64,000 nucleotides of DNA from Pseudomonadales bacterium. GTDB taxonomy: Bacteria; Patescibacteriota; Microgenomatia; UBA1400; PJMF01. The stretch is from NCBI GenBank assembly GCA_020632265.1, contig JACKFW010000001.1, positions 791,272-855,271 on the forward strand, given 5' to 3'. The notes under the pieces are model-generated. The model was not told the origin of the DNA. It saw only the letters and a list, made by a program, of their open reading frames with translations, and ran no database searches. Shown piece after piece: positions 1-55,669 of the stretch. The position numbers and the translations under genes are program-made. Position 1 is the stretch's first letter; every line of letters starts with the position of its first letter.

Positions 1-2574
1 AGAGGAGGTGAGTAGATAGCCAGAAGTACCAGCATTACCTGCAACTCTAATAGCATCTGTCAGATTTAGTTCACCGACTACATCGAGAGCGTAGCCAGGA
101 GCAGTGGAACCAATCCCCACATTTCCCCCAAAGTATGCTTTGCCATTACTCTGTAGCAAGATATCGGCACTAGCAGTACTGGTGCCACCAATGGCTAGAT
201 CAACCACGCTGGCTAATTCATTCTTTGGATGAAGGACATTGAGTGTATTTGCCCAGATATTGGAAACAGCTAGGGTTGCAGGATCTGTCCAGGTATTAGC
301 ACCACCAGCAGAGGAGGTGAGTAAATATCCACTTGTACCAGCACTACCAGCGACTCTAATAGCATCAGTTAAGTTCAGTTCACCAACTACATCGAGAGCG
401 TAGCCTGGGTTGCTAGATCCAATACCGATATTTCCATTCTCATCAACTACACTCAAAGCACTGCCGGCGCCATTTTGCCATTCTTGAATATTTGCTGTAC
501 CAGAGGGACCACCTTTGAGTACTAAACTTGTTCCATTGGCATATGTTGCAGAAAAAGTAGCACCTGGAGCAGAAAAATAACTGGTAGATAGTACTTCTCC
601 CAATCCATCGGGGCTAATAATTATGTCTCCATTTGAGCCAGAACTGGTTTTGAGTGTTAGCGTTTGAGCTTCGATTGAAAAAGTTCCCGATGTAGCTTTT
701 AAGGTTGGAGAGACTTCTCCAAGTAGTACTTGTCCTGCCGAATCCATAGTTAGAATTGTGTTGGTGGTTGCTGCCCCTGTTGCTGAAATAGGATATCCTT
801 GAACAGTTTCTGAATTTAGAGCGTAAGCTACTGTTTTGATACTTTGTCTTGGAGAAAGAGTTTCAACATCAACATCTACCTCAAGCCAAACATTTGAATT
901 TTCGGTAAAAACATCTTGAGAAATTTCTGATCCACAATCATCACCTAATCCAACATTAAAAATACCATCTTGATCGGGTGTCACGCTACAGGTTCCCGAA
1001 TTCCAGAGCTGTGTTCCACCTGTTCCTGGACCAGTGTCATACAATCTGAACGCCATGTCAGTGGCGATTGTAATTGGATTTTGAGCTGTATCTGTCAACC
1101 TTCCTTGAAATGAAAGCTCTCTATTAGGTCTTGTAGGAGAGGTAGGATATGCCAATGACCCAGGTGTTTGTTGAATAAATTGGACATATCCCAAATATCC
1201 AATTCCTAGAAAAAACAAAAAGATCATTGCTAGATTGAAGTATGGTAATAATGATTTATTTTTTTGGGAGTTTAATGATCGAGAAAATTCTTTCAAACTT
1301 TCTTTTAGCCTTGATTTATAAGTTCTTTTCTCATTTTCAGACGCCGTATTATTATCCTTAATAAATTTAGGCATCGGTAGCGACCATCTTTTTGATTTTT
1401 CTGATTTGTTATTAACTTCATTATTTTTTAGGATACGACGAATTAAATTTTTTGATTTTGATTTCGATTCAGTGTCAGTTGCTTGATCATTGTCCGGTTG
1501 GGAAGTATCTTCTTGAATCGGAATATCCATATTTTTCAATTTAAGTTCTATACTATGGGTCGAAGGCACTAATTTTTTATAAGACGAGCTTGATATTATA
1601 GGTTTTTGAGCCAAGACATGAAGCCAAAGCGTAGTGTTTTTAAGGTCACCTCTTTTTTCTGCCCACGATGAAAATTGCGACAAACTTACGATTTTTCTTT
1701 TTATGCTTGATTGTTTGAGTCCTTTAGTTTTTTGATAATTGATGAATTTATTAAGATTTTCTTGTGTAATTGCTGCTTCTAGACTTAAATTACCGATAAA
1801 TTCAATAAATTGAGCAATGTCACTTTTGTAATTTTTAATTGTTGAATCACTATGGCCATCAATTTCTAATCCAATTAAATAGTCCTCGAGATGCTCGTCG
1901 GCTTTTTTTGACACTTTGGGCATTTTACTTGTTTTTAAGTTTGATCTATTTTGGATATCATCTCCAATTTTCTGATTTCTCGCCTCACTGCCCGAAGGAT
2001 TTTCTTCTTTTTTATTTGATGTAAAAAGGCTATCAATATCTGTGATCCAGAAAGAAACATCTGAAATTAATTTTTGATCTTCGGCCCAAGTTGCAAATTG
2101 AGCAATGCTTATTAGTTTTCTCTTGACGGTACCAACCTTTAGTTTTTTTGCAAATTGGTCTTTCACAAACTTTTTAACTTCAACTTGAGTAAATAATTTA
2201 TTTATTTGAGATTCTTGAGATAGAGAAATAAACTGAGCAATGTCACTTCGATAATTTTTTATGGTTGATGAAGATCTGTCATCATTTTTTAGTGAATTAA
2301 GAAACTGATGTAGAAAAATGTCAACTTGATGTGGAGTGAAGTCTTCAATATATTTTTTAATCAAGATGGCAGTGTTAGAAGACAAATTTTCGGATTTAAT
2401 AAATTTTTCCAACTCATCAGTTGACCAAGAATCATAATTATTTTTTTGTTGTAAAAACTTAACAAATTTTATGGTAGTAGCTTCACTTAGTTTGGGGGAT
2501 ACGTTTAAACTTTCCAAATATGTGGAAAAAGTTTCAAGGATACTAGTAATATATTTTGCTTGGACAGTCATTAA
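1..2574 (-). CDS. Large surface/repeat protein, 5'-partial at the window edge. N-terminal cytoplasmic region carries two tandem copies of a tyrosine-recombinase N-terminal SAM-like (core-binding) domain. A predicted TM helix follows, then Gly/Thr/Ser-rich repeats (NPGYALDVVGELNLTDAIRVAG...GYLLTSS repeated).
   Basis: Manual reverse-strand translation from ATG at 2574 runs without stops to position 1. It is absent from the ORF track because it is open at the window edge. Motifs STIKNYRSDIAQFISL and STIKNYKSDIAQFIEF are each followed by KRK(L/I)xSxxQFxxWAE, which matches the XerC/XerD core-binding helix pattern. The hydrophobic segment LPYFNLAMIFLFFLGIGYLGY is a likely TM helix. An alternative internal start lies at 1374 (MPKFIKD...). 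Confidence 0.5.
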
Positions 2575-3148: not shown

Positions 3149-3898
3149 ATGAAAAAAAATACCCAAAAAATACTCTTATCTCTATACTCACCATCTAATA
3201 CAACTAACCACAGGATTAAATTAAGAGGTATAGATTTAATTGTCCCCGATCTTACTGACGGAGGTAGACGTTCATTAATACATGTTTTAAAGACCAATGG
3301 TATGATCAATGTTGAAAGAGTTTTAGGAGTAACCTCTGTAAATATTACTCAATATGGAAACAAACAACTAGAGGTTGAATTTCCGGCTTTGTCTTCAAAA
3401 TGGGATCAGTGGCAAGGAAATTGGGATTGTTTGGCATTTGTTAAGGCTCCAAAGAGTGATAAACAGTTTAGGTATTTAAGGAAATTATTGGTCTCAGAAG
3501 GAGCAATTTCTATTAGTCGCGGAGTGTATATATCTCCCAATGGGTTTTCAAACAAAGTCGTTTCTGAATGTAATGAACTCTATCGGGAATCTATCTTAAT
3601 GTTTTCGGTAGGTGAGTGGAAAATTGCCTCACTGAGAAATTTAATTGTGGAGAAATATGGCTTATTGGACTTCGTAGAAACTTACTCTGGAATTAGCAAT
3701 GATGTAAATAGACTGCTAACAATGGTAAATAGTAAAAATTCATTGATAGAGAGTTATAAATTGGACATAAATTTGGCTTATGATCGCTTGAGAGATATGT
3801 TAAAGGAGGATCCGGGTTTTTGTCACTATTATTTTAATGAAATACCAAAGATCAAAAGCATTCTTAAAGATCTAAATTCAATAATTCTCCGATACTAA
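3149..3898 (+). CDS. Hypothetical protein (249 aa). It is an isolated ORF inside a very AT-rich ~2.1 kb non-coding island.
   Basis: It is the only long ORF between 2575 and 4744. No recognisable motif was found. It is preceded by an A-rich stretch and a possible RBS. Confidence 0.4.
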   Translation: MKKNTQKILLSLYSPSNTTNHRIKLRGIDLIVPDLTDGGRRSLIHVLKTNGMINVERVLGVTSVNITQYGNKQLEVEFPALSSKWDQWQGNWDCLAFVKAPKSDKQFRYLRKLLVSEGAISISRGVYISPNGFSNKVVSECNELYRESILMFSVGEWKIASLRNLIVEKYGLLDFVETYSGISNDVNRLLTMVNSKNSLIESYKLDINLAYDRLRDMLKEDPGFCHYYFNEIPKIKSILKDLNSIILRY

Positions 3899-4744: not shown

Positions 4745-6886
4745 TTACTCTGTTTGAAACATTTCTTTATAAACCTCATTGATGTCTTTCATTATTGCAT
4801 TGACGCTAGCAGTTGTTCCCAAAACGTTGATTTCTTCGTAACTAAGTTGAGATCCCTTTCTCATCCAAATAAAGCCGTTTTTGGTGATCTGAATTTGATA
4901 TTTGTCAGGTTTCAAAAAGGTAGAATAGTAGCCTTTGCTATTTGTAAGAAGTAAAGCCACCAACTCGCCCTTTCTAGGGTTATTGATTCTGATAATGGCA
5001 TTTTCTACTGGCGATTCGTTGGTATTGAGCACATATCCCGAAATTGTCGGTTTTCTCAAAGCTTGAATAAACTTTTTGAATAGGACAACAATATATAAGC
5101 CTAATATTATAAGATTGATTATTGTTGGGTAGAAGATTGTTATGATTATTGAAATGATAAATAAAGGCCAGAAAAAATTCACAAACTTTATTTTTTGTAC
5201 CAATCTTCTAATGTTCGTTTTAGGTGAATAGCTAGTCTTTGTTTCAGTAATTTTGTCTACAGGGATTAAGAATAGCTGTTGGTCTGAGTCAGACCTAACT
5301 TGGAAAGTTTCTCCACGATAAAACTCTTCTATTGTTAAATAATTAGGTCTTTCTTTTTTAGTTGGAAAAATGTAATCTTGATGGCTAATATTAATCACAT
5401 ATTCTCCCTTTGGAAGCTGAGCTCCTTGATATATGCCATCTATGTCAGTTACAAGAGTAGCAACAATTTGTCCTTTGAGAGTTTCGCTAGTTGATTTGAT
5501 AGTAATTAAGGCAAATGACACTGGCTTATTGGAATCCGAATCATAAACAAGTCCTTGTGGTTCTTTTGGGGGAATTATTCCTAAAGCTCTGAGGATATTC
5601 AGGACTAAATGCCAAGAAAATTGTTGACCGAGTTGAAAAAGAAGGGTCAGAAAGCTAAATGCGGGAATGGCAGCTGTTGTTATTAGCACGCCTATTGGAG
5701 AAATTTCTTGAGAAATTTTAACAAAAAATGCTTGAAATGTTTCTGGTGTTTGAGTTATGGTTTGGACGATAGGCTTTGGAATAACTTTTTCAACTTCTTT
5801 AATGATTTTTATTGCAATTTCTTCGGGAGGAAGGATGGGAATTTTTATGATTGGTGTTGTTGTGGCTGGTGGCGTGGGTATGGGTGGTGTAGGCAGAGGA
5901 GTATATCCTGGCAAAGGTGTTGTTGTGGCCGGTGGTGTAGGAGTAGGCGTTGGTGTAGGAATAGGCGTGGGCGTTGGTGGAATAATAATATACTCTTGAA
6001 TAATTAATATTCGAAGCTCATTCAAAATGCTAATATTATTTGCTAGATCTGTGATCAAGAAATTAAGAGTTATTACTTTATCTCTAGGAAGAATTCCTAG
6101 TTGAAAATTCCAATTTCCATTTTCATCAATTGTAAAGTTAATAATTTGATTGCTTTCATCGGGAATGACAACCGTTACCTGAACAGCGGAGTAGGCTTCA
6201 CCGGTTCCAATAAATTCGGGCGAATTGTTTTCTAATTCTATTGGATTGGCAGGAACCGAACTGATGTCTTGCGCCGATATATTGGTTGAAATTGGACCAA
6301 TTGATGTAATAGTAAAGCTTGGAGCTAGTGTATCAATTATAAAGTCCCAGGTAACAGAAGTATTATTGTTTAGCGCAGCATCAAACACGACAATTCTCCA
6401 AGTATGAGGTCCATTACTAATCACGGCAGTCGGCGTGAGAGAGTATCTGCCAGATCCAGAGTCATAAACTAGATCATAGAATGTGTTTGAAGTGTTGACT
6501 GTCGGAATGTTATCAAAAAGTATTGAGCCATCAAGATACATTTGGTAGTATGCAACTCCAACATTGTCTGTTGATTGTTGCCAAACAAAGGTGGGAGTAC
6601 CATCATTTAGAAGACTTTCATCTTCTGGAGAGATCAAAATAGGAGCTGAAGGTGGAATATTATCTGGAACTGTTGCTGTAACGATGGGATTTCTAATTTT
6701 AGGATTTGTTAGAAGATCTTCCCCTGGACTAATTCCACCAACTTGAGCAAAGGCTATATTTGTTACAAAACTTACAATGAACAAGTTTAGCAAAATGATA
6801 ATAATCTTAGAATAAGAAACTTTAGTTTTGTTTGAAAAAATCAAATTTCTATGCTTGCGGAGTGTCATTTTGATCACTCTCTTCAT
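4745..6886 (-). CDS. Secreted/membrane-anchored protein (713 aa). It has an N-terminal signal/TM, a Pro-Thr-rich linker (PTPTPIPTPTPTPTPP...), a C-terminal TM cluster and a carboxypeptidase-regulatory-like tail.
   Basis: Long ORF. The hydrophobic N-terminus (IIIILLNLFIVSFVTNIAFA) and the PT-repeat low-complexity region are seen in the translation. Confidence 0.6.
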   Translation of the reverse strand: MKRVIKMTLRKHRNLIFSNKTKVSYSKIIIILLNLFIVSFVTNIAFAQVGGISPGEDLLTNPKIRNPIVTATVPDNIPPSAPILISPEDESLLNDGTPTFVWQQSTDNVGVAYYQMYLDGSILFDNIPTVNTSNTFYDLVYDSGSGRYSLTPTAVISNGPHTWRIVVFDAALNNNTSVTWDFIIDTLAPSFTITSIGPISTNISAQDISSVPANPIELENNSPEFIGTGEAYSAVQVTVVIPDESNQIINFTIDENGNWNFQLGILPRDKVITLNFLITDLANNISILNELRILIIQEYIIIPPTPTPIPTPTPTPTPPATTTPLPGYTPLPTPPIPTPPATTTPIIKIPILPPEEIAIKIIKEVEKVIPKPIVQTITQTPETFQAFFVKISQEISPIGVLITTAAIPAFSFLTLLFQLGQQFSWHLVLNILRALGIIPPKEPQGLVYDSDSNKPVSFALITIKSTSETLKGQIVATLVTDIDGIYQGAQLPKGEYVINISHQDYIFPTKKERPNYLTIEEFYRGETFQVRSDSDQQLFLIPVDKITETKTSYSPKTNIRRLVQKIKFVNFFWPLFIISIIITIFYPTIINLIILGLYIVVLFKKFIQALRKPTISGYVLNTNESPVENAIIRINNPRKGELVALLLTNSKGYYSTFLKPDKYQIQITKNGFIWMRKGSQLSYEEINVLGTTASVNAIMKDINEVYKEMFQTE

Positions 6887-8012
6887 GGCTCATGTTTTGA
6901 ATTTGAGATTCTAACTCTTGAATTCTTTTAGCATCAACATCTTTTCGATGTTTAAGGTGTCTTTTGATTGAAATAACTAAGATAATAATTGTTAGTAAGA
7001 TAAAGATGACTGCAATCAAAAGCTTGACTGGCAATAACCAGAACATAGAGTTAGCAACCACTACAGCTCCAGCGGTTCCAAAACTCATGGTTAGTTTTGC
7101 TTTATAGAGTCCAGTTCCCCAGATCTTTTCCCAGCGTCCTTCAAAGTCTCTACTTGAGATTGGAAAGACATTTTTTGAGTCAACTTGAATAGTGTCAATT
7201 TTTTTATTAAAGATGTTAAAAATTTCCACATTCATTCTTGGTGCAATGTGAATATCAGAGTTATTCTCGATAGTGAATGAAAATGGAACCGGACCATATT
7301 CGGTAAATTTTGGGAAAGTAAAGTTTCTTACATAAGCTTCTTCGTTTATTGGTCCGTCAACGATAACATACAAAAGAGTGCCAACTTTTTGGTTAATGGC
7401 CGATTGAGAATTTCCTGCAACCGTAAAATCACCACTTTTATTTGCTGGCTGATGTAAAACCATTGCATAATGTCCTCCTGGAAGAGCGTCTTCTGGGATT
7501 TCAATTAATAGATTGAGTCCAATTGTTTCATTTGGTGCAATTGAGTTTTCCGCAGGAGTGATGGTGAGCCACGAAGCTAAGCTCCATCTATTTGAAGTTG
7601 AATCATCAATAGCGATAGGTGTTTTACCGTCTTCACTAATAATAAAATCTTGAGCTGATGACAAAACATTGATTCTTTGCTCTGACTGATTTCTGACTCT
7701 TAGTTGAACCTGAAGCTTTTCGCCGGGAAGAGCTTTTAAGCTATTGTCTTCTCCTAAACGAGGAGGAATTGCTGTTAGAGTAACTTGAGAGGGATCAGAA
7801 AATTCAATGCTTTTGGTTTCAGTTAGGTTGGTAACTTCGGGCACATTGGTTTCTTCAAAAATACTTTCGCCTTCATTCGATAATTCTGGTTCAGTATTTT
7901 CAGTTTGAGCAAAAACAAGAGATTTAGTGAGAATCAAGGTGGAAAAAAACAAACCGCCAGCAATTAAACTAAATGCAAATTTTCTAGATGTGAGTTTTTG
8001 GGCAGTTTTCAT
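6849..8012 (-). CDS. Cell-surface protein with an N-terminal signal peptide and a C-terminal TM anchor (387 aa). Its architecture resembles DUF916-like surface proteins.
   Basis: N-terminal hydrophobic leader. The C-terminal LLPVKLLIAVIFILLTIIILVISIKRHLKHRK is a TM segment followed by a basic tail. The gene overlaps the upstream gene by 38 bp, which suggests an operon. Confidence 0.5.
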   Translation of the reverse strand: MKTAQKLTSRKFAFSLIAGGLFFSTLILTKSLVFAQTENTEPELSNEGESIFEETNVPEVTNLTETKSIEFSDPSQVTLTAIPPRLGEDNSLKALPGEKLQVQLRVRNQSEQRINVLSSAQDFIISEDGKTPIAIDDSTSNRWSLASWLTITPAENSIAPNETIGLNLLIEIPEDALPGGHYAMVLHQPANKSGDFTVAGNSQSAINQKVGTLLYVIVDGPINEEAYVRNFTFPKFTEYGPVPFSFTIENNSDIHIAPRMNVEIFNIFNKKIDTIQVDSKNVFPISSRDFEGRWEKIWGTGLYKAKLTMSFGTAGAVVVANSMFWLLPVKLLIAVIFILLTIIILVISIKRHLKHRKDVDAKRIQELESQIQNMSHEESDQNDTPQA

Positions 8013-8064
8013 ATTTATTTTTTAATTCTATATATATTCTTTATAACTCAAATTTTATTCCTTT

Positions 8065-9528
8065 TTAGAACGTAGCAGTTGCAGTGTAAGTGATATTATT
8101 TTCATAATCTCCTGCGCTTTGTACTGCATCAATTATTGCTCTGTAGCAGACATAAAGATTATGGTTATTTGCGACTGATGAAGAACTAAATACGGTTTGA
8201 GCTGATTGCCCATCTTCAAGATCTGCAAACTGTCTTGCGCAGTAAACTCCTGAACAACCACCGGCTGTTGAAGTATATTCGAAAGGAGCAGTAAGACCTG
8301 AAGTATTAACGTCATCTAGGGTAAAACCAAAGCCTTTTACAGCTGTGGACACCCATTCGTCTGGGACTGCATGAGTCATTGTGGTGGTATCTCCAACGGA
8401 GTCAGGAATACAATCTGAACCTGTGTTATCTCCGAGACAAACACCAGCATTTCTCCCCATTTGATCATTTTCAATAGCGGTCACTACATAGCCATTTGCT
8501 GCATTGGTTGAAACTGATAAAGCTTGAGCCGCATCAGTGAATGCTGAGATTGCCAAGTTTCCAAGTGGAACTCCAGCAGCTGTTGTGGTTACATCAGTTG
8601 TTTGACCACAAGCTGATATGCCACTTGCAACTCCATTGATCTGAAAAGTAATTTGTGGAGAAACAGTAGCGGTGACTCTAACGGTTTCGATAACTCCGAT
8701 GGAAACTGTTGTGGCGTCTCTCGTTGTGAATGTATTGTCTAAGTGTTGAACCACTATCTTGTAGCTATCTGCCAAACCAGTGGTGTGACCAGACTTTGGA
8801 GCAGGGTTAATGATACTATCAATTGTGATCGCATCGTTGGTGGTACCATCGAATGCCGTCCCAATTGCTCCAGCGCCAGAGTATGCACATTCGTATGAAT
8901 TGTAATCTTGAGAGCCAATTGTGACTGCTGATGCGGTTGCGACACCGGAAACAAAATCGTATCCTGCAATGTCTGATGGACAGGTAACAGTTGGAGCAAC
9001 ATTGCCAAAATCAAATTGACCCGCGTCTGGAATGCCGTCAGCTGCGTCTGCATTGTTTGACTCAGAAGGAACTAATATTCTAAATGCTCCATTGGCAACT
9101 GCGTTGGTGGTAGTAAATCTAATGGTGTGTGTAGCTGATTGGGTAGAAATAACATCGTCGTTAGTATCAGCATCTCCAGCTAGTAAAACTGGAGTAATGT
9201 TAACTACGGATGCAGAATCAATACTAGTTATTGTATAAGATGCCAAACTTGATGTATCTCCAATTGCTAAAACATCTCCGGTAACCAGTTGAGCAGAAGA
9301 AGTGGATGGGTTGGATCCGACAGTTGAATTAATAGTAATTTGTGAAGAACCAACACTGTTTCCTGTTGTAAGTTTGCCTCTAAAGGAAAGCCTGGAGTTA
9401 GATAAAGTTGCGGAAACACTAGTCATGTTTGCCGATTGGCTTTGTTGATAAAAACCTCCAAAAAACATTGCTGAAACAAGAAAAATTGTTACTGCTACTT
9501 TTTGTGGAGTGTTGTTTTTTTGTTTCAT
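8065..9528 (-). CDS. Secreted Thr/Ser/Ala/Gly-rich surface protein (487 aa).
   Basis: It has a signal peptide (VAVTIFLVSAMFFGGF). It is low-complexity, T/S/A-rich and cysteine-containing. Its G+C is locally higher than that of its neighbours. Confidence 0.55.
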   Translation of the reverse strand: MKQKNNTPQKVAVTIFLVSAMFFGGFYQQSQSANMTSVSATLSNSRLSFRGKLTTGNSVGSSQITINSTVGSNPSTSSAQLVTGDVLAIGDTSSLASYTITSIDSASVVNITPVLLAGDADTNDDVISTQSATHTIRFTTTNAVANGAFRILVPSESNNADAADGIPDAGQFDFGNVAPTVTCPSDIAGYDFVSGVATASAVTIGSQDYNSYECAYSGAGAIGTAFDGTTNDAITIDSIINPAPKSGHTTGLADSYKIVVQHLDNTFTTRDATTVSIGVIETVRVTATVSPQITFQINGVASGISACGQTTDVTTTAAGVPLGNLAISAFTDAAQALSVSTNAANGYVVTAIENDQMGRNAGVCLGDNTGSDCIPDSVGDTTTMTHAVPDEWVSTAVKGFGFTLDDVNTSGLTAPFEYTSTAGGCSGVYCARQFADLEDGQSAQTVFSSSSVANNHNLYVCYRAIIDAVQSAGDYENNITYTATATF

Positions 9529-9607
9529 AGTATAACAAAGAATAAATAACGATTTTCTTGTCTGGATATCAGTTTATACATTTTTTAATTTAGTTGCAAT
9601 ATGCAAT

Positions 9608-10561
9608 TTATGTAATTCTTGCCCTGGACTTAACTTTTTTTAAGTAAATTGCGCTAATTACAAAGCCTAGGCCAATAATTATTATTGCAGAGAAAGGAAA
9701 AGCATAAACTACTTCAATGTAATTTGTTGTTCCTTCTTGATCATTACGTAGCGTAACGACAATTTGATATGGTCCAAATAAAAACTTAGGTTTGTATGAA
9801 AACGTTCCTGTTTCTGGTTTATCATTTGTAATTCCTGGTCTGAGAGCTCTTAATTCTCTGGTACTATATCCAAGTACTACATCTGGGTAAATTTCATATT
9901 CAGTAAGTGTGTTTTTTCTCCAATCCAAAATTTTTGCACTTCCTGAAGCAGAATAAGAAGCAATGCTTTCATTTTTGACCAAAGGTAAAAAATCAATCTT
10001 TCCAAAACTATCCACAAATTTTGATGTGTTTAGATCTAAAATACTTAAAACTTGGTTTAATTTAGTTTTATTGGAGATTAAGACAACGAGATTGCTTCCA
10101 ATTGCCCCGCTTATCTGTGAATTTGTGGACTGTGTTGTTGTGACACTATTATTTTCTTTGGAAAAAAATAAAATTGTAACCGGATATTCTTTTTCTTTTG
10201 CATCTTTTGGAGCATCTATATATAGCGTTAACTGAGCTTTTTTATTGGCCGGGATTGATAATTCCTTGATTTCAGTTTTTCCAAAGGATATATAGGGGAG
10301 GCTGAGTTCGTTAGAAATTATTGCTCTGCCAGTTTTACCATCAGTAGTAAAATCAACAATTGAAGGTAGAACAGTGATTGTGTTTTCACCACTATTTTCA
10401 AGCACTATGGTGTGGGTCCGAGAAGAACCGGGAGGAACTTGCAAATATGATATTGGTGGCGAAACACTTAAATTTAGACTTGCTTGGGCGTCAACTTTTT
10501 TGATATTGTTCAAAAATATTAAAAAAAAGATCATTATTGAGAATAGTATTTTTTTATTCAT
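9608..10561 (-). CDS. Surface protein with an N-terminal signal peptide and a C-terminal TM anchor (317 aa).
   Basis: N-terminal LFSIMIFFLIFLNN. C-terminal IIIIGLGFVISAIYLKKVKSRARIT. Confidence 0.5.
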   Translation of the reverse strand: MNKKILFSIMIFFLIFLNNIKKVDAQASLNLSVSPPISYLQVPPGSSRTHTIVLENSGENTITVLPSIVDFTTDGKTGRAIISNELSLPYISFGKTEIKELSIPANKKAQLTLYIDAPKDAKEKEYPVTILFFSKENNSVTTTQSTNSQISGAIGSNLVVLISNKTKLNQVLSILDLNTSKFVDSFGKIDFLPLVKNESIASYSASGSAKILDWRKNTLTEYEIYPDVVLGYSTRELRALRPGITNDKPETGTFSYKPKFLFGPYQIVVTLRNDQEGTTNYIEVVYAFPFSAIIIIGLGFVISAIYLKKVKSRARIT

Positions 10562-10658
10562 ATTTTTTTGTATTTAATTTAACTTATTGCAATTGTTATT
10601 TCAGTATTATTTACCACATTTTATTACTTAACAGTTTTTAAAATGTTGTTAGTCTTGT

Positions 10659-11411
10659 TTAATATCCTGGAACTGCTACATAAACAATTCCCGTTTCATA
10701 TGTACCACTAGCTTGAATGCTACTAATCCCAGCCTTGTATGTTACCGTAGATTGTCTTTGATTAGCAATATTAATAGAGCTCATGACAACTTGCATGATG
10801 TCAGCTGTTTCATTGTCAGCAAAGTTTTTATAGTATGTGCTATTTATAAAGTTAGCTGGAATATCATCACCAGACATATTATATCCAAATCCAGCAATTG
10901 ATTGGTCGTTCCATACTCCAGCTACTATATGAGTACAAGATCCAGTATTGCAAGTGGTGTCCTCGATTTCATCTATTCCATTGGTGTGTCTAAGAGGATG
11001 TAGTTCGTAAGCATAAATAGTATAACCTCCAGCACCTCTAGTATTTATTGTTAAATTATGTGAATCCGTTGAATGAACTCCTTCAAATAATTCTCCAAAA
11101 TCAACTAAGGTTTTTGATATGGCAAAACTAAATTGGTCTATTTGATATATGTATTGAAATCCACTTCCAACAAAGTATGTTGAACTTCCATATGATCCAT
11201 AAGGTCCAGAAGCAGTTTGACCGACCGTATCTGTAACATTGTAGGTGGCGCTACTTTTTTCTCCAGATGTTACATTGAAATTGCCAAATTGAATAATCCA
11301 GGAATCAGAACTAAGATTCTCGGCTGAAACTTTTTTTGCAGTAAAAATGAAGATCAATGTCAACACAGGGATCAATGAGATAATTATTAAGTTTTTTTTC
11401 ACGCCGTTCAT
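10659..11411 (-). CDS. Secreted hypothetical protein (250 aa).
   Basis: It has a signal peptide (LIIISLIPVLTLIFIFTAKKVSA). It is co-directional with the surface-protein cluster. Confidence 0.5.
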   Translation of the reverse strand: MNGVKKNLIIISLIPVLTLIFIFTAKKVSAENLSSDSWIIQFGNFNVTSGEKSSATYNVTDTVGQTASGPYGSYGSSTYFVGSGFQYIYQIDQFSFAISKTLVDFGELFEGVHSTDSHNLTINTRGAGGYTIYAYELHPLRHTNGIDEIEDTTCNTGSCTHIVAGVWNDQSIAGFGYNMSGDDIPANFINSTYYKNFADNETADIMQVVMSSINIANQRQSTVTYKAGISSIQASGTYETGIVYVAVPGY

Positions 11412-12145
11412 GATTCTGTTTTGTCTAAGGTTTCATTCTCTTTGATTTTTTCAAGAATTTTGTCACTTTCACTTAAAATTAAGGAAATTTGACTTTTGAT
11501 TGTTTCGATTTCTTTTTCATTTTTTGATTCCAAATCCTCAAGGGCAATTAATTTGGGTTTTAAGAAGCTCGAAATAAAACTTTCAAGGGAGTGTTCACTT
11601 CTAGTTAAATTATTTATTTCAATTTCTTCCTTTTGAATAATTGAATGACTAATTTGAGCATCATTATATTGTTTTCGTGCAAATAGGAAGAGAATTAGCA
11701 TAATTGGAGTGGTCAAAATTGTTGCAATTTCGCTTATAGAAAATGATGGAGAAATTGCATAATGGAATAACAAGGTAGACATAGCAACTGCAATAGAAGT
11801 AGTTTCTTTTGTGCTCATGACGAGTATAAAAAGGTGAATGTATACGAATGGATAAAAAACTGATTCAATATTTCCAGTTGATCCAACCAGAATTAAAATA
11901 GAAAAAGTGATAAACATCATTTCTAGTGAATAATTTTTTGGTAAAATATGCCAAAGCTTGGCATTGTTTATTTTTTTTACTAAAAAATATCCAAGAGTTG
12001 AGAGTGAAAAGGCTTGAAGTGCAAAATTATTTAAAAATGGAGTGGTTAGCCAAAGATATGCCATTAGAACAGAAGAAAGCAATAGCGCAGTATGTTTGGC
12101 AGTAGACATATTATAAGTATATCTCAGTAAATACCTAAACGACAC
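11408..12145 (-). CDS. Polytopic membrane protein (245 aa).
   Basis: It has multiple hydrophobic helices. It overlaps the downstream gene by 4 bp. Confidence 0.5.
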   Translation of the reverse strand: MSFRYLLRYTYNMSTAKHTALLLSSVLMAYLWLTTPFLNNFALQAFSLSTLGYFLVKKINNAKLWHILPKNYSLEMMFITFSILILVGSTGNIESVFYPFVYIHLFILVMSTKETTSIAVAMSTLLFHYAISPSFSISEIATILTTPIMLILFLFARKQYNDAQISHSIIQKEEIEINNLTRSEHSLESFISSFLKPKLIALEDLESKNEKEIETIKSQISLILSESDKILEKIKENETLDKTES

Positions 12146-51808: not shown

Positions 51809-51879
51809 CAATTTCAATCCTTTGTTAGTTCGTTGATTATATAATTATAAGCCCAAAACCACCTCCCGACTCGAGGAAA

Positions 51880-52096
51880 AATAGGTTCGAACATCCTTCA
51901 CTAGTCCCTGCAAAATAAAATAAATCCCGAATGGGATTTCTTTTATTTTATGGGGTTGATAGGTGAATTTACCCATGCGAAGCATAGTTCTACCACATGG
52001 CGAACAAGCGAGAGCGCAGTGAGCCGGGTTAATGCATGCGAGCCAACTTACAGGAAGTATGATGTGGCGAGTCGCAGATTCCCTTTGGCCCTGCAA
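51880..52096 (+). repeat. Long cassette-boundary element, copy 1 (217 bp). It comprises the boundary motif, an intrinsic terminator hairpin (51917..51950), a ~150-nt GC-rich module and a 19-nt tRNA-Trp 3'-end copy. It is bracketed by the direct repeat CCCTGCAA.
   Basis: Seen directly. It ends in GATTCCCTTTGGCCCTGCAA, which matches the tRNA-Trp 3' end with one C>T change. It is followed by a TATAAT box at 52102..52107. Confidence 0.85.
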
Positions 52097-52107
52097 TATC
52101 CTATAAT
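52068..52107 (+). promoter_or_regulatory. Conserved outward-facing -10-like box (TCCTATAAT) immediately after the boundary elements. It is a candidate cassette promoter. The same arrangement occurs at 53035, 53834, 54767, 58714 and 61725.
   Basis: TATAAT or TATAAC occurs at a fixed offset (+6) after CCCTGCAA in 6 of 12 boundaries. A -35-like TTCACT lies 16 nt upstream in the short-motif versions. Confidence 0.3.
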
Positions 52108-52152
52108 AGTTATTCCGTCAAACAAAATGTGTTATAATTTCTCTAGTTGTTT

Positions 52153-53000
52153 ATGGTAATGACAGAAAAATCTCCAGTTTTAATGAGAGCTAATCCAGTT
52201 GAATTAGTTAAATTAGTTTGGTCTAATCGAGATAAAATTCCTAATTTTTTAAGCAGTTAAGAGAAATTATTAATGACGGAAAAGATTTAAATAAGAGATC
52301 TCTTTATGAAGATCTTAACCATATTAACGAATTATTTGGTACTTCAATTGAAATTGATGGTGTTGAAAATATTCCAAAAGAGGGTGGTGTAGTTGTTGTA
52401 ACATCTCATGTGGTCAATGTTAAAAACGCTCCGGGATGGAAGAACAAAAATGTCAATCCGTTTTGGTGGGCGAGTGGGATTGCTGAGGGTGTTAAAAAAG
52501 CTAGAAATGAAGAAATTCATCCAGTTGTCTATTCTCCAGGATCAAGCCTTTACACTCAAATAATCAGAGATGTATTTGATGGTTTTCCAGTTAGTCATAA
52601 AAAAGATGATAAAAGGAAAAATCACGAATCGATTATGCTGGCAAGAAAAGCAGTTGATCGAGGACAGGTAGTTTTAATAGCACCTGAGGGTGAAAATAGG
52701 ATTGGTTTAAGTAAACCTCACTTGGGTGGAATTAGTCGCTTACTTAGTAGTAGAACTATGTTTGTTCCAGTAGCTTTTTTTGAATTGGAGTCTGGAGGTG
52801 ATTTTTCGTATAAAGTTATTTTTGGAAAGCCAGTGACCTGTGATTTTGATTTACCTCTTCCAAAAAATTCAAGTGATTCTTTGCCACTAGATGAAGATGA
52901 TAGAAATAGAGTTGATGATTTTGTAGATTATTTAATGATTAGAATTGCTTCATTATTACCAGAAGATAAAAGAGGAGTTTATACAGATAAACTTAAATAA
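52153..53000 (+). pseudogene. Cassette 4: PlsC/LPLAT-family acyltransferase-like gene, apparently disrupted by a +1 frameshift at a T6 run (~52244..52250). The downstream ORF (GTG at 52410) continues the protein.
   Basis: ORF 52153..52259 (MVMTEKSPVLMRANPVELVKLVWSNRDKIPNFLSS*) is followed in the +1 frame by ...LFGTSIEIDGVENIPKEGGVVVVTSHVVNV... and APEGENRIG. These are acyltransferase motif I and III-like. The 3' end lies in boundary motif 52997..53029. Confidence 0.45.
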
Positions 53001-53029
53001 GTTCCAACATCGTTCACTAGTCCTTGCAA
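52997..53029 (+). repeat. Short cassette-boundary motif, copy c (variant GTTCCAACATCGTTCACTAGTCCTTGCAA). It is followed by TATAAT at 53035..53040.
   Basis: It overlaps the TAA stop of the acyltransferase-like gene. Confidence 0.75.
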
Positions 53030-53112
53030 TGTCCTATAATAGTTATATCCCCAAAGTACAGTGACATTTCTTCAATATTTTAATTGCAATAACTTATTGT
53101 ATAATTTGATAA

Positions 53113-53556
53113 ATGATATATAACAACTTCAATTATGACAATAAATCAATTCAAAATGATTTTGAACTAGAAAAAGTAACAAAACAAATTGAATCAGAAT
53201 TGATTGAAGGATTTCAATTAAATGAAGATGATGAAATAAAAGTAACTTTCTTCGCTCCAATAGAAATTGGGGTAATAATTAAATCTAAAGAATTTAATAT
53301 AAAGTTTAGTCTTTTAACTAGAAAAATTGGTCGCTGTGTTGATATTTATAGTATTTCGGTCACAAACAAAGGAGTAGGAGTAGGAAGAAAAGTATTAACG
53401 AAAATCGAGGAAATAGGAAAAAAATATAGCTGCAAGATGGTTAATATAATCGGACCCCTAAAGAAAAGTATAAAATTTTACGAAAAACTTGGCTATGTAA
53501 AGAAGTATACTTCCCCTTTTGATAGAGATATGGTAAAGATATTGAGTGCTAATTGA
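53113..53556 (+). CDS. Cassette 5: GNAT-family N-acetyltransferase (147 aa).
   Basis: Motif A region KGVGVGRKVL and FYEKLGYV. It is followed by a long boundary element. Confidence 0.65.
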   Translation: MIYNNFNYDNKSIQNDFELEKVTKQIESELIEGFQLNEDDEIKVTFFAPIEIGVIIKSKEFNIKFSLLTRKIGRCVDIYSISVTNKGVGVGRKVLTKIEEIGKKYSCKMVNIIGPLKKSIKFYEKLGYVKKYTSPFDRDMVKILSAN

Positions 53557-53611
53557 ATTTATGATTTCAGATAACTTTTTTTATTGATGCTTACTTGATA
53601 TCTAATAGAAA

Positions 53612-53828
53612 CATAGGTTCTAACATCCTTCACTAGTCCCTGCAAAATAAAATAAATCCCGAATGGGATTTCTTTTATTTTATGGGGTTGATAGGTGAAT
53701 TTACCCATGCGAAGCATAGTTCTACCACATGGCGAACAAGCGAGAGCGCAGTGAGCCGGGTTAATGCATGCGAGCCAACTTACAGGAAGTATGATGTGGC
53801 GAGTCGCAGATTCCCTTTGGCCCTGCAA
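53612..53828 (+). repeat. Long cassette-boundary element, copy 2.
   Basis: It is identical to copy 1 and lies inside the 1,732-bp duplication. Confidence 0.85.
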
Positions 53829-53884
53829 TATCCTATAATAGTTATTCCGTCAAACAAAATGTGTTATAATTTCTCTAGTTGTTT

Positions 53885-54732
53885 ATGGTAATGACAGAAA
53901 AATCTCCAGTTTTAATGAGAGCTAATCCAGTTGAATTAGTTAAATTAGTTTGGTCTAATCGAGATAAAATTCCTAATTTTTTAAGCAGTTAAGAGAAATT
54001 ATTAATGACGGAAAAGATTTAAATAAGAGATCTCTTTATGAAGATCTTAACCATATTAACGAATTATTTGGTACTTCAATTGAAATTGATGGTGTTGAAA
54101 ATATTCCAAAAGAGGGTGGTGTAGTTGTTGTAACATCTCATGTGGTCAATGTTAAAAACGCTCCGGGATGGAAGAACAAAAATGTCAATCCGTTTTGGTG
54201 GGCGAGTGGGATTGCTGAGGGTGTTAAAAAAGCTAGAAATGAAGAAATTCATCCAGTTGTCTATTCTCCAGGATCAAGCCTTTACACTCAAATAATCAGA
54301 GATGTATTTGATGGTTTTCCAGTTAGTCATAAAAAAGATGATAAAAGGAAAAATCACGAATCGATTATGCTGGCAAGAAAAGCAGTTGATCGAGGACAGG
54401 TAGTTTTAATAGCACCTGAGGGTGAAAATAGGATTGGTTTAAGTAAACCTCACTTGGGTGGAATTAGTCGCTTACTTAGTAGTAGAACTATGTTTGTTCC
54501 AGTAGCTTTTTTTGAATTGGAGTCTGGAGGTGATTTTTCGTATAAAGTTATTTTTGGAAAGCCAGTGACCTGTGATTTTGATTTACCTCTTCCAAAAAAT
54601 TCAAGTGATTCTTTGCCACTAGATGAAGATGATAGAAATAGAGTTGATGATTTTGTAGATTATTTAATGATTAGAATTGCTTCATTATTACCAGAAGATA
54701 AAAGAGGAGTTTATACAGATAAACTTAAATAA
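53885..54732 (+). pseudogene. Duplicate copy of the frameshifted acyltransferase-like cassette (second unit of the 1,732-bp tandem duplication).
   Basis: It is identical to 52153..53000, shifted by 1,732 bp. Confidence 0.45.
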
Positions 54733-54761
54733 GTTCCAACATCGTTCACTAGTCCTTGCAA
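54729..54761 (+). repeat. Short cassette-boundary motif, copy d (duplicate of c).
   Basis: It is identical to copy c, shifted by 1,732 bp. Confidence 0.75.
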
Positions 54762-54844
54762 TGTCCTATAATAGTTATATCCCCAAAGTACAGTGACATT
54801 TCTTCAATATTTTAATTGCAATAACTTATTGTATAATTTGATAA

Positions 54845-55288
54845 ATGATATATAACAACTTCAATTATGACAATAAATCAATTCAAAATGATTTTGAACT
54901 AGAAAAAGTAACAAAACAAATTGAATCAGAATTGATTGAAGGATTTCAATTAAATGAAGATGATGAAATAAAAGTAACTTTCTTCGCTCCAATAGAAATT
55001 GGGGTAATAATTAAATCTAAAGAATTTAATATAAAGTTTAGTCTTTTAACTAGAAAAATTGGTCGCTGTGTTGATATTTATAGTATTTCGGTCACAAACA
55101 AAGGAGTAGGAGTAGGAAGAAAAGTATTAACGAAAATCGAGGAAATAGGAAAAAAATATAGCTGCAAGATGGTTAATATAATCGGACCCCTAAAGAAAAG
55201 TATAAAATTTTACGAAAAACTTGGCTATGTAAAGAAGTATACTTCCCCTTTTGATAGAGATATGGTAAAGATATTGAGTGCTAATTGA
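54845..55288 (+). CDS. Duplicate GNAT-family acetyltransferase cassette.
   Basis: It is identical to 53113..53556, shifted by 1,732 bp. Confidence 0.65.
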   Translation: MIYNNFNYDNKSIQNDFELEKVTKQIESELIEGFQLNEDDEIKVTFFAPIEIGVIIKSKEFNIKFSLLTRKIGRCVDIYSISVTNKGVGVGRKVLTKIEEIGKKYSCKMVNIIGPLKKSIKFYEKLGYVKKYTSPFDRDMVKILSAN

Positions 55289-55343
55289 ATTTATGATTTC
55301 AGATAACTTTTTTTATTGATGCTTACTTGATATCTAATAGAAA

Positions 55344-55560
55344 CATAGGTTCTAACATCCTTCACTAGTCCCTGCAAAATAAAATAAATCCCGAATGGGA
55401 TTTCTTTTATTTTATGGGGTTGATAGGTGAATTTACCCATGCGAAGCATAGTTCTACCACATGGCGAACAAGCGAGAGCGCAGTGAGCCAGGTTAATGCA
55501 TGCGAGCCAACTTACAGGAAGTATGATGTGGCGAGTCGCAGATTCCCTCTGGCCCTGCAA
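55344..55560 (+). repeat. Long cassette-boundary element, copy 3.
   Basis: It is near-identical. Its 3' 19 nt exactly match the tRNA-Trp 3' end (GATTCCCTCTGGCCCTGCA). Confidence 0.85.
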
Positions 55561-55669
55561 ACGTTCAATTTTTGACTGTAAATAGGCCTTTTTTAATTTA
55601 AGTATTTTCAAAATTCAGATACTTTGCTGAAAAATAGTGTTTAGCAATACTTTGATATAATGTTGGCTT

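Follow-up and report, generated by a model that had tools for sequence, protein, structure and literature searches.

The question raised by the locus at the left edge of the analyzed DNA (64,000 nucleotides (nt) of contig JACKFW010000001.1; this whole stretch is referred to below as the window) is why a giant, fiber-like surface protein carries tyrosine-recombinase-type domains at its N-terminus, and whether these two parts belong to one gene at all. The open reading frame (ORF) of this fiber gene runs on the minus strand, where an in-frame TAA stop (2583–2581) is followed by the codons AAA-GAA-TTA and by the first ATG at 2571–2569. The initial annotation had placed the start at 2574, but the codon at 2574–2572 is TTA (Leu), so the start lies one codon later, at 2571. 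The window contains the N-terminal 857 codons of the gene (1–2571, open to the left window edge), and all of the encoded residues (857/857) are identical to the N-terminus of the 5,466-amino acid (aa) protein MCB9813502.1 (P0004), encoded on a 1.08-Mb contig and named in NCBI as 'phage integrase N-terminal SAM-like domain-containing protein [Pseudomonadales bacterium]'.

The fiber locus is one real gene and not an artefact of gene calling. Its product is, with high confidence, a type II (N-in/C-out) single-pass membrane protein with a giant tail-fiber-like exoprotein. As a whole, this protein is best explained as an attachment fiber with a domesticated, recombinase-derived DNA-binding tail, a reading to which a probability of about 0.5 was assigned. 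The general picture drawn initially, namely, Xer-type domains followed by a hydrophobic helix and by Gly/Thr/Ser-rich repeats that continue past the window edge, was confirmed.

Core-Binding Domains of the N-Terminal Tail

The presence of two N-terminal repeats of the XerC/XerD core-binding (CB) type had been proposed from sequence motifs, with a HMMER search against Pfam as the suggested check. In this search, the Phage_int_SAM families matched above cut-off: Phage_int_SAM_1 (PF02899) was found in two stretches of the 857 aa (whole-protein E-value = 5 × 10−18, 65.6 bits against a cut-off of 22.3), the best of which (aa 228–308) covered model positions 1–83 of 83, while PF13495 scored 51.6 bits, with SAM_4 and SAM_5 matches in support. 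The XerC, XerD and XerA models of NCBIfam were aligned only over positions ~3–90 (50–67 bits against cut-offs of 220–335), and the scores for the XerC and XerD equivalogs TIGR02224 and TIGR02225 were 67.1 and 64.7 bits against cut-offs of 335 and 330, respectively, so that the protein is not a member of either. The profile hidden Markov model (HMM) of the family placed SAM-like domains at aa 83–174 and 225–315 (E-value ~3 × 10−30 each). The two units share 43% identity (BLASTP E-value = 4 × 10−22), and the Xer-type motifs are present in both of them as quoted (SSSTIKNYRSDIAQFI and SDSTIKNYKSDIAQFI; KRKLISIAQFATWAE and KRKIVSLSQFSSWAE), in agreement with the proposal of two repeats.

Domain 1 (aa 80–172; 2056–2334, minus strand) has a net charge of +6 and is supported by PF02899/PF13495, the family HMM and the helices predicted by AlphaFold2 at aa 82–165, whereas domain 2 (aa 222–314; 1630–1908, minus strand) is supported by PF02899 and a structural match to PDB entry 2oxo. 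In the AlphaFold2 model, which was built with a 29-sequence family alignment, the predicted local distance difference test (pLDDT) score was above 90 for aa 1–185 and ~224–306, the latter range comprising the helices of unit 2, and a disordered stretch (aa 193–218) separated the two units. The first 77 residues (2341–2571, minus strand) form a further conserved four-helix unit (helices 2–21, 26–42, 51–61 and 65–77; pLDDT above 90), delimited from the model, from hhalign and from identity to the orthologue of locus L004. Its alignment to the family SAM-like profile using hhalign was weak and register-consistent (E-value = 3 × 10−4, probability 38%), and this unit is probably a degenerate third SAM-like repeat.

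Foldseek comparison of the tail with PDB structures retrieved lambda integrase, XerA, Cre, integron integrase and isolated 'integrase N-terminal domains' (probability ~1.0, root-mean-square deviation (rmsd) ~2 Å), with a TM-score of 0.84 and an rmsd of 2.1 Å relative to the isolated lambda Int core-binding domain 2oxo. The Foldseek E-values were weak (≥0.037) because the query was multi-domain. At the sequence level, phmmer of the tail against PDB sequences gave no matches, and the family profile gave weak ones only, namely, to XerA (E-value = 0.024) and to the integrase-like N-terminus of a chain deposited as RaiA. It should be noted separately that the recombinase SAM-like profile aligns with the N-terminal region of PDB 9i5v chain 14 (401 aa, deposited as 'ribosome-associated translation inhibitor RaiA') at an E-value of 7 × 10−4; this is an odd fusion, unrelated to the fiber protein.

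Absence of a Catalytic Domain

Members of the family are named 'site-specific integrase' or 'hypothetical protein' in public records, and the former name, used by NCBI for homologues, would point to a working site-specific integrase or to a gene that marks a mobile element. This reading has virtually no chance of being correct. The catalytic Phage_integrase domain (PF00589) was not found using Pfam in the 857 aa or in the full-length proteins of L004 (2,295 aa), P0007, P0005 and P0008, nor was it among the precomputed Pfam matches shown for P0017 and P0043, while P0004 was scanned in parts. The initial claim that the tyrosine-recombinase catalytic domain is missing is thus extended to every full-length member scanned, and the protein is therefore incapable of recombination; with its defining domain looked for and absent, the identity of an integrase was ruled out. 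Against it stand also the XerC/XerD equivalog scores, which reach only 65–67 bits where 330–335 are needed, and the position of the gene in a conserved chromosomal surface-protein cluster adjoining leuS. A BLASTP comparison of P0004 with an approximate sequence of E. coli XerD was uninformative, as it was too insensitive even for the SAM-like region.

An adjacent partner recombinase within the window was likewise not supported: the family HMM found no other SAM-like ORFs in the 64 kb, and no tyrosine recombinase was noticed there. The tail has in common with Xer-type recombinases and lambda integrase the four-helix fold and the sequence signature, including the basic residues on helices B and D, but it differs from them in that the catalytic domain is lacking and the CB domains are in tandem, membrane-tethered and joined to a giant exoprotein. 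Annotation pipelines that call such giant fibers 'site-specific integrase' inflate the counts of integrases and mobile elements in genomes of the candidate phyla radiation (CPR).

Transmembrane Helix and Topology

The CB domains are followed by a disordered lysine-rich linker (aa 315–411; 1339–1629, minus strand; pLDDT below 50 for aa 330–392), which contains Met400 (1374–1372), and the net charge of aa 316–440 is +11. Next comes a single long helix (aa 412–467; 1171–1338, minus strand), assigned from hydropathy and the AlphaFold2 model, which combines a juxtamembrane helix with a transmembrane (TM) segment (aa 441–467; 1171–1251). The hydropathy scan of the 857 aa revealed exactly this one TM-like segment, in agreement with the hydrophobic helix noted initially after the CB repeats, and the pattern Y.L..LF..GLG.FGY.QF is conserved in the TM region of 121 representatives. 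Approximately 440 residues without an N-terminal signal peptide precede this sole anchor, and nine lysine or arginine residues are present in the 30 aa before it as opposed to three in the 30 aa after it. Because of the missing signal peptide, the single anchor, this charge bias and the tail-fiber-like character of the C-terminal ~5,000 residues, a cytoplasmic N-terminus and an external C-terminus appear to be the only sensible orientation, and the recombinase-like domains would therefore lie in the cytoplasm. The topology prediction that had been recommended thus gave one TM segment, with the SAM-like domains predicted to be inside.

This topology bears directly on the idea, raised initially, of a role in DNA uptake, which would make the protein an extracellular receptor with outward-facing SAM-like domains. 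CPR bacteria rely on nucleotides and DNA from their surroundings, and the domains are of a DNA-binding type, both of which speak for such a receptor. However, no signal peptide precedes the SAM-like domains, there is only one TM segment, and the C-terminal 5,000 aa, being tail-fiber-like and containing Peptidase_S74, must be outside, which leaves the SAM-like domains inside, where they cannot receive external DNA as ComEA does. In ComEA-type receptors, the helix-hairpin-helix domain is extracellular, whereas here the DNA-binding-type domains are on the cytoplasmic side of a single TM segment, and Pfam found no helix-hairpin-helix domain in the 857 aa. An uptake receptor is therefore very improbable.

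The motif LA(Y/F)P (aa 473–476; 1144–1155) is invariant throughout the family and is located 6–9 residues beyond the TM core on the outer side; a structural role is possible, as is that of a signal-peptidase-like processing site at which the fiber would be detached from the SAM-like/TM stub. Together with the disordered linker and the conserved helix-destabilising TM residues P443, N446 and G456 (LPY.NL...G.G), this invariant motif just outside the membrane would fit a releasable regulator, in which engagement of the fiber would lead to site-1/site-2 proteolysis, as in RsgI and anti-sigma factors, and to a soluble transcription factor. Such a regulator is improbable, since it is deduced from motifs alone, the window revealed no protease partner, and the cutting of a 5,000-aa fiber for each signal would be costly.

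Extracellular Base and Fiber

Close to the membrane on its outer side, the chain forms a beta-sandwich (aa 486–578, LSFQGRLTD...PDQDGIF; 838–1116, minus strand), delimited by conservation and by AlphaFold2 strands with pLDDT of 80–90. It is the most conserved part of the family, with 90–99% conservation in the LSFQGRLTD and PDQDGIF columns, and a fold search with it returned generic immunoglobulin- or prealbumin-like matches only, none of them specific. From aa 579 to the window edge at aa 857 (1–837, minus strand; GNIGIGSSNPGYALDVVGELNLTD...), the Gly/Ser/Thr-rich fiber repeats begin, as judged from composition and a direct repeat: a 126-nt unit occurs twice, 309 nt apart (1–126 and 310–435, 80% identity). 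Tandem Repeats Finder detected no meaningful DNA arrays in 1–2600. Gly, Ser and Thr together account for 35% of residues downstream of the TM segment, and in the full P0004 sequence a ~103-aa unit is repeated 12 times and the motif GN[IV]G[IV]G 38 times, which bears out the claim that the repeats continue beyond the window edge.

Outside the window, P0004 contains a Peptidase_S74 domain (PF13884) at about aa 4778–4832 (52.9 bits against a cut-off of 22), followed by ~600 aa; the region around this domain matches PHROG tail-fiber families with E-values down to 1.6 × 10−21, and P0008 has a Peptidase_S74 domain too. A phage-tail-fiber-like extracellular part with an intramolecular chaperone near the C-terminus is thus predicted; from what is known of such proteins, assembly as a trimer and autoproteolytic release of the chaperone would be expected. 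The likeness to Peptidase_S74-containing phage tail fibers and tailspikes and to PblB-type receptor-binding proteins consists in the Peptidase_S74 domain, the PHROG tail-fiber matches and the GNVGIG-type repeats, whereas the differences are that the protein is cellular and chromosomal, has an N-terminal TM segment and cytoplasmic domain instead of a virion-attachment domain, and extends ~600 aa beyond the chaperone. The MAT fibers of Bdellovibrio share the concept of a bacterium that lives on bacteria and displays tail-fiber-like fibers with a conserved base and variable tips; the fiber protein is not a member of the corresponding family (Bdello_MAT_N, NF053851, NCBIfam; 16.1 bits against a cut-off of 60, E-value = 0.0076), and MAT fibers are not known to have a recombinase-like domain in the cytoplasm. 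Among monoderm bacteria, giant surface adhesins such as Ebh of S. aureus and Giant1-5 of Apilactobacillus (PMC12863079) are likewise repetitive exoproteins of several thousand residues, each anchored by one TM helix that has a charged stub in the cytoplasm, but the cytoplasmic part of the fiber protein consists of folded, conserved DNA-binding-type domains of 200–400 aa, and its anchor is N-terminal.

Family of Homologues and Continuity of the Reading Frame

An exhaustive HMMER search of 1.84 billion representatives with a profile of the first ~520 residues yielded 791 clusters at E ≤ 1 × 10−3, 390 at E ≤ 1 × 10−10 and 83 at E ≤ 1 × 10−30. The exhaustive search was needed to see the family, as word-indexed homologue searches gave only three and nine mostly truncated proteins. 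Approximately 130 of the best 150 members have the same layout, in which one or two SAM-like units are followed 50–125 aa later by a single hydrophobic segment, ~48 aa after the TM segment by (L/I)SFQGRLTD, and then by a very long C-terminal region; the fusion of a DNA-binding-type domain to a surface repeat protein, considered unusual at the outset, is hence a recurrent feature of homologues. Among the 149 best members, 80 are at least 2,000 aa and 24 at least 4,000 aa long, with a maximum of 7,697 aa. The members originate from metagenome-assembled genomes (MAGs) of Microgenomates/Pacebacteria (CPR), and the family is restricted to the CPR, with a conserved base and variable distal parts. 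Half a unit, one unit or two units of the tail may precede the TM segment and the beta-sandwich, and the distal modules vary (Laminin_G_3 and Toxin_R_bind_N in P0017, Peptidase_S74 in P0004). In a distant subfamily (P0100, P0127, P0131, P0137, P0139, P0141 and P0142), only a cytoplasmic stub of ~55 aa is found before the TM segment, corresponding to the hairpin of SAM-like helices C and D (LSPSTVKRRxxxxRKFCxWAxxxGYLxxNPF); the basic helix-D region is thus the smallest cytoplasmic element that the family conserves.

The same homologues decide whether two genes were wrongly joined, that is, whether a SAM-domain protein was fused by gene calling or assembly to a fiber whose true start is Met400 of 'MPKF' (1374). 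In favor of such an artefact, the frame is broken in the near-identical metagenome contigs L001 and L002: in L001 (7100–7440), an in-frame stop follows GPGMGGT, and in L002 (5500–5770), a duplication of ~40 nt (estimated from repeated HKHKRWSLPIPKFI) at WSLPIPKFI causes a frameshift, and gene callers split the orthologue at these breaks. However, the breaks are at different places, and read-through of either restores the conserved protein, so they are read as probable assembly or strain defects. More than 100 representative proteins and at least six independent loci have one continuous frame, which is uninterrupted in the independent assemblies L004 (2,295 aa), L005, L006, L008/L009 (5,205 aa, 15 contigs) and L010 (7,697 aa). 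Met400 is not conserved, being replaced by Ile, Phe, Val or Leu in orthologues, and a fiber starting at 1374 would still need the TM segment, just 40 aa downstream. Homologues do not start at MPKF after a separate upstream gene; they share the N-terminus M(T/P)AQxKYITSI, and the promoter-like blocks upstream of 2571 are conserved together with it. The alternative start at 1374 was accordingly abandoned, and an artefact is hardly credible.

Several observations on these loci concern single assemblies. L003 (P0003) is chimeric, as the first ~390 aa of the fiber orthologue run into a glycine dehydrogenase C-terminal domain (GcvP2_C). At the P0017 locus (L008, 25618–33408), a second giant gene (2,596 aa; Laminin_G_3, Toxin_R_bind_N and DUF2341) begins exactly at the end of the 5,205-aa fiber gene and could represent either a distinct partner or the remainder of the fiber gene, cut off by a frameshift. 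With regard to the source of the DNA, the window has a G+C content of ~33%, and its syntenic relatives are MAGs assigned to Candidatus Pacebacteria, to the Microgenomates group or to Paceibacterota (CPR/Patescibacteria). Because this G+C content as well as the gene content and synteny match Pacebacteria/Microgenomates MAGs, the label 'Pseudomonadales bacterium', carried by the source MAG and by a second MAG, L005, is probably a taxonomic mislabel.

Proposed Function of the Tail

In comparison with the L004 protein, the folded domains of the tail are 52–70% identical (70% for aa 1–185), whereas the linker is 26% identical, and the domains are therefore under purifying selection. Against a mean column identity of 22% in the alignment, T..NY.SD..QF on helix B and (K/R)RK...QF..W on helix D are invariant or near-invariant, and helices B and D are the two DNA-contacting, major-groove helices of the CB domains of Cre, lambda Int and Xer proteins. 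The SAM-like units are net positive in 95% of 159 cases (from 112 members; median +5), and the linkers are positive in 82%. The charge and the conserved residues of helices B and D would fit nucleic acid binding without proving it, and the reading as a 'membrane-tethered DNA-binding protein', suggested initially, would be a reasonable one. A DNA-binding or coupling role of the tail, as distinct from the architecture, is put at slightly less than an even chance.

According to the mechanism proposed here, the fiber would be an adhesin for attachment to a host or a surface, and the recombinase-derived tail would be a domesticated, non-catalytic nucleic-acid-binding module. A trimeric fiber would put six to nine basic SAM-like units and their lysine-rich linkers beneath the membrane, where the clustered units and linkers could bind chromosomal DNA and thereby couple the attachment fiber physically to the nucleoid. 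Alternatively, the protein could be a membrane-tethered regulator resembling ToxR or CadC, in which engagement of the fiber would change DNA occupancy and gene expression. By analogy, it would work most like a cross between a phage-type fiber adhesin and a transmembrane transcription regulator. In such regulators (ToxR, TcpP and CadC, surveyed in 2023 in PMC10269533), the order of parts is the same, with a cytoplasmic N-terminal DNA-binding-type domain, a linker, a single TM segment and an extracytoplasmic domain, but the fiber protein has a recombinase CB fold in place of the winged helix-turn-helix and a 5,000-aa fiber in place of a small sensor domain. A canonical ToxR-type regulator was ruled out, as Pfam found in the N-terminal 857 aa only Phage_int_SAM families and no match to helix-turn-helix or Trans_reg_C domains.

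The main rival to a DNA-binding tail is a purely structural one, which is doubtful on the evidence at hand. The SAM-like bundles would then be a cytoplasmic 'foot' without a DNA role. They would oligomerise, attach to anionic lipids or to a further protein, and keep a long fiber with a single TM segment from being extracted. The varying copy number of the tail (half, one, two and perhaps three units) is expected of a module that provides bulk or avidity, a basic surface near the membrane could equally bind phospholipid head groups, and conservation is higher in the TM segment and the first extracellular domain than in the tail. Moreover, anchoring against extraction from the membrane is a recognised problem for long trimeric adhesins (PMC13082670). 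On the other hand, the conserved polar signature on helices B and D exceeds what the fold or mere bulk needs, the disordered linker of 60–125 aa holds the domains away from the membrane, and the repeated recruitment of a recombinase DNA-binding fold is left unexplained.

The explanation as an attachment fiber with a DNA-binding tail has a number of points against it. The gene is known from MAGs and contains near-identical repeats, so its exact length is uncertain; the fiber is probably trimeric, as deduced from the Peptidase_S74 domain only; and the positive-inside charge near the TM segment is modest across the family (median +3 versus +2). SAM-like unit 2 of the fiber protein has a net charge of 0, and isolated recombinase CB domains bind DNA weakly without the catalytic domain. 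Cleavage at LA(Y/F)P could undermine direct mechanical or signaling coupling. Furthermore, the most obvious candidate binder of the palindrome upstream of the gene (see below) would be the neighboring PaaX-like protein and not the tail.

If the attachment fiber does bind DNA through its tail, it might represent a new class of coupling device in episymbiotic CPR bacteria, namely, a giant host-binding fiber wired to the chromosome by domesticated CB domains; this extension is tentative and considered unlikely. In such a device, no two-component or sigma/anti-sigma relay would be needed for host contact to be passed on to the DNA. The signal could travel mechanically, through clustering or through proteolytic release of the tail, and at the DNA it could regulate genes or position the nucleoid where the cell is attached.

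Full-text searches for this architecture retrieved nothing relevant, and the words 'integrase', 'recombinase', 'SAM' and 'Patescibacteria' are absent from the main text of the 2023 survey of transmembrane regulators. The domain architecture is real and widespread and, apparently, undescribed. How the ultra-small CPR/Patescibacteria recognise, hold and sense host cells is largely unknown, and this family, which comprises hundreds of 50%-identity clusters and reaches 7,697 aa in its longest protein, is a concrete and widespread candidate with the conserved base and variable tips expected of host-range determinants. The tail seems to put the tyrosine-recombinase core-binding domain to a use outside recombination that has not been described before; if it binds DNA, the membrane-tethered regulators would gain a new DNA-binding fold.

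Upstream Region and Neighboring Genes

Two promoter-like elements on the minus strand, P2 (TTGATA-17-TAAACT; 2627–2655) and P1 (TTCACA-18-CATATT; 2846–2875), lie in blocks upstream of 2571 that are conserved across seven loci. It should be noted that the promoter scan overall was at chance level (12 sites versus 11.9 expected), and only these two sites, located on blocks conserved between loci, were used. The P1 block (TTCACTTCACATAATATCAA...ATATTTACA, 2846–2880) is ~300 nt upstream of the fiber ATG; its CTTCACA is invariant in 7/7 orthologous loci and kept even in distant ones, and the use of P1 would imply a 5' leader of ~270 nt. Elsewhere in the window, CTTCACA is not enriched (two found versus 0.67 expected), and there is therefore no evidence of a regulon. 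No Rfam family matched in the intergenic region.

A perfect 8-bp inverted repeat, CTTGAGGT-N11-ACCTCAAG (2638–2664), overlaps the −35 element of P2. It is unique in the window, had no matches in 100 shuffles, is also present in L004 and L001, and may be operator-like. Divergent from the fiber gene, a putative PaaX_M-like regulator of 249 aa is encoded on the plus strand (3149–3898; PF20803, 30.1 bits against a cut-off of 24) and is syntenic in all loci examined (L001, L002, L004, L005, L006, L008 and L010).

Further along the window, a co-directional cluster of six surface-protein genes (245, 250, 317, 487, 387 and 713 aa; 4745–12145, minus strand), defined from ORFs and Pfam matches (CarboxypepD_reg/Big_13, with weak WxLIP_PGBD and fn3_5), keeps its order in L004, L008 and L010, and its layout recalls the Csc/WxL cell-surface clusters of Firmicutes. 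The 245-aa protein is polytopic, while each of the other five carries a hydrophobic, signal-like segment at its N-terminus; three of these five additionally possess membrane-spanning or anchoring segments further along the chain. The 250-aa and 487-aa proteins have the N-terminal segment, the 317-aa and 387-aa proteins combine it with a C-terminal TM segment (weak fn3_5 and WxLIP_PGBD), and the 713-aa product of the last gene is a Big_13/CarboxypepD_reg membrane protein.

A tandem duplication was found at 51876–55639, where two units of 1,732 bp (51876–53607 and 53608–55339) with 99.9% identity precede ~200 bp of a third copy. A 196-aa ORF without a Pfam match and a 147-aa ORF encoding a GNAT-like acetyltransferase are present in each unit, and the duplication is either recent or an assembly artefact.

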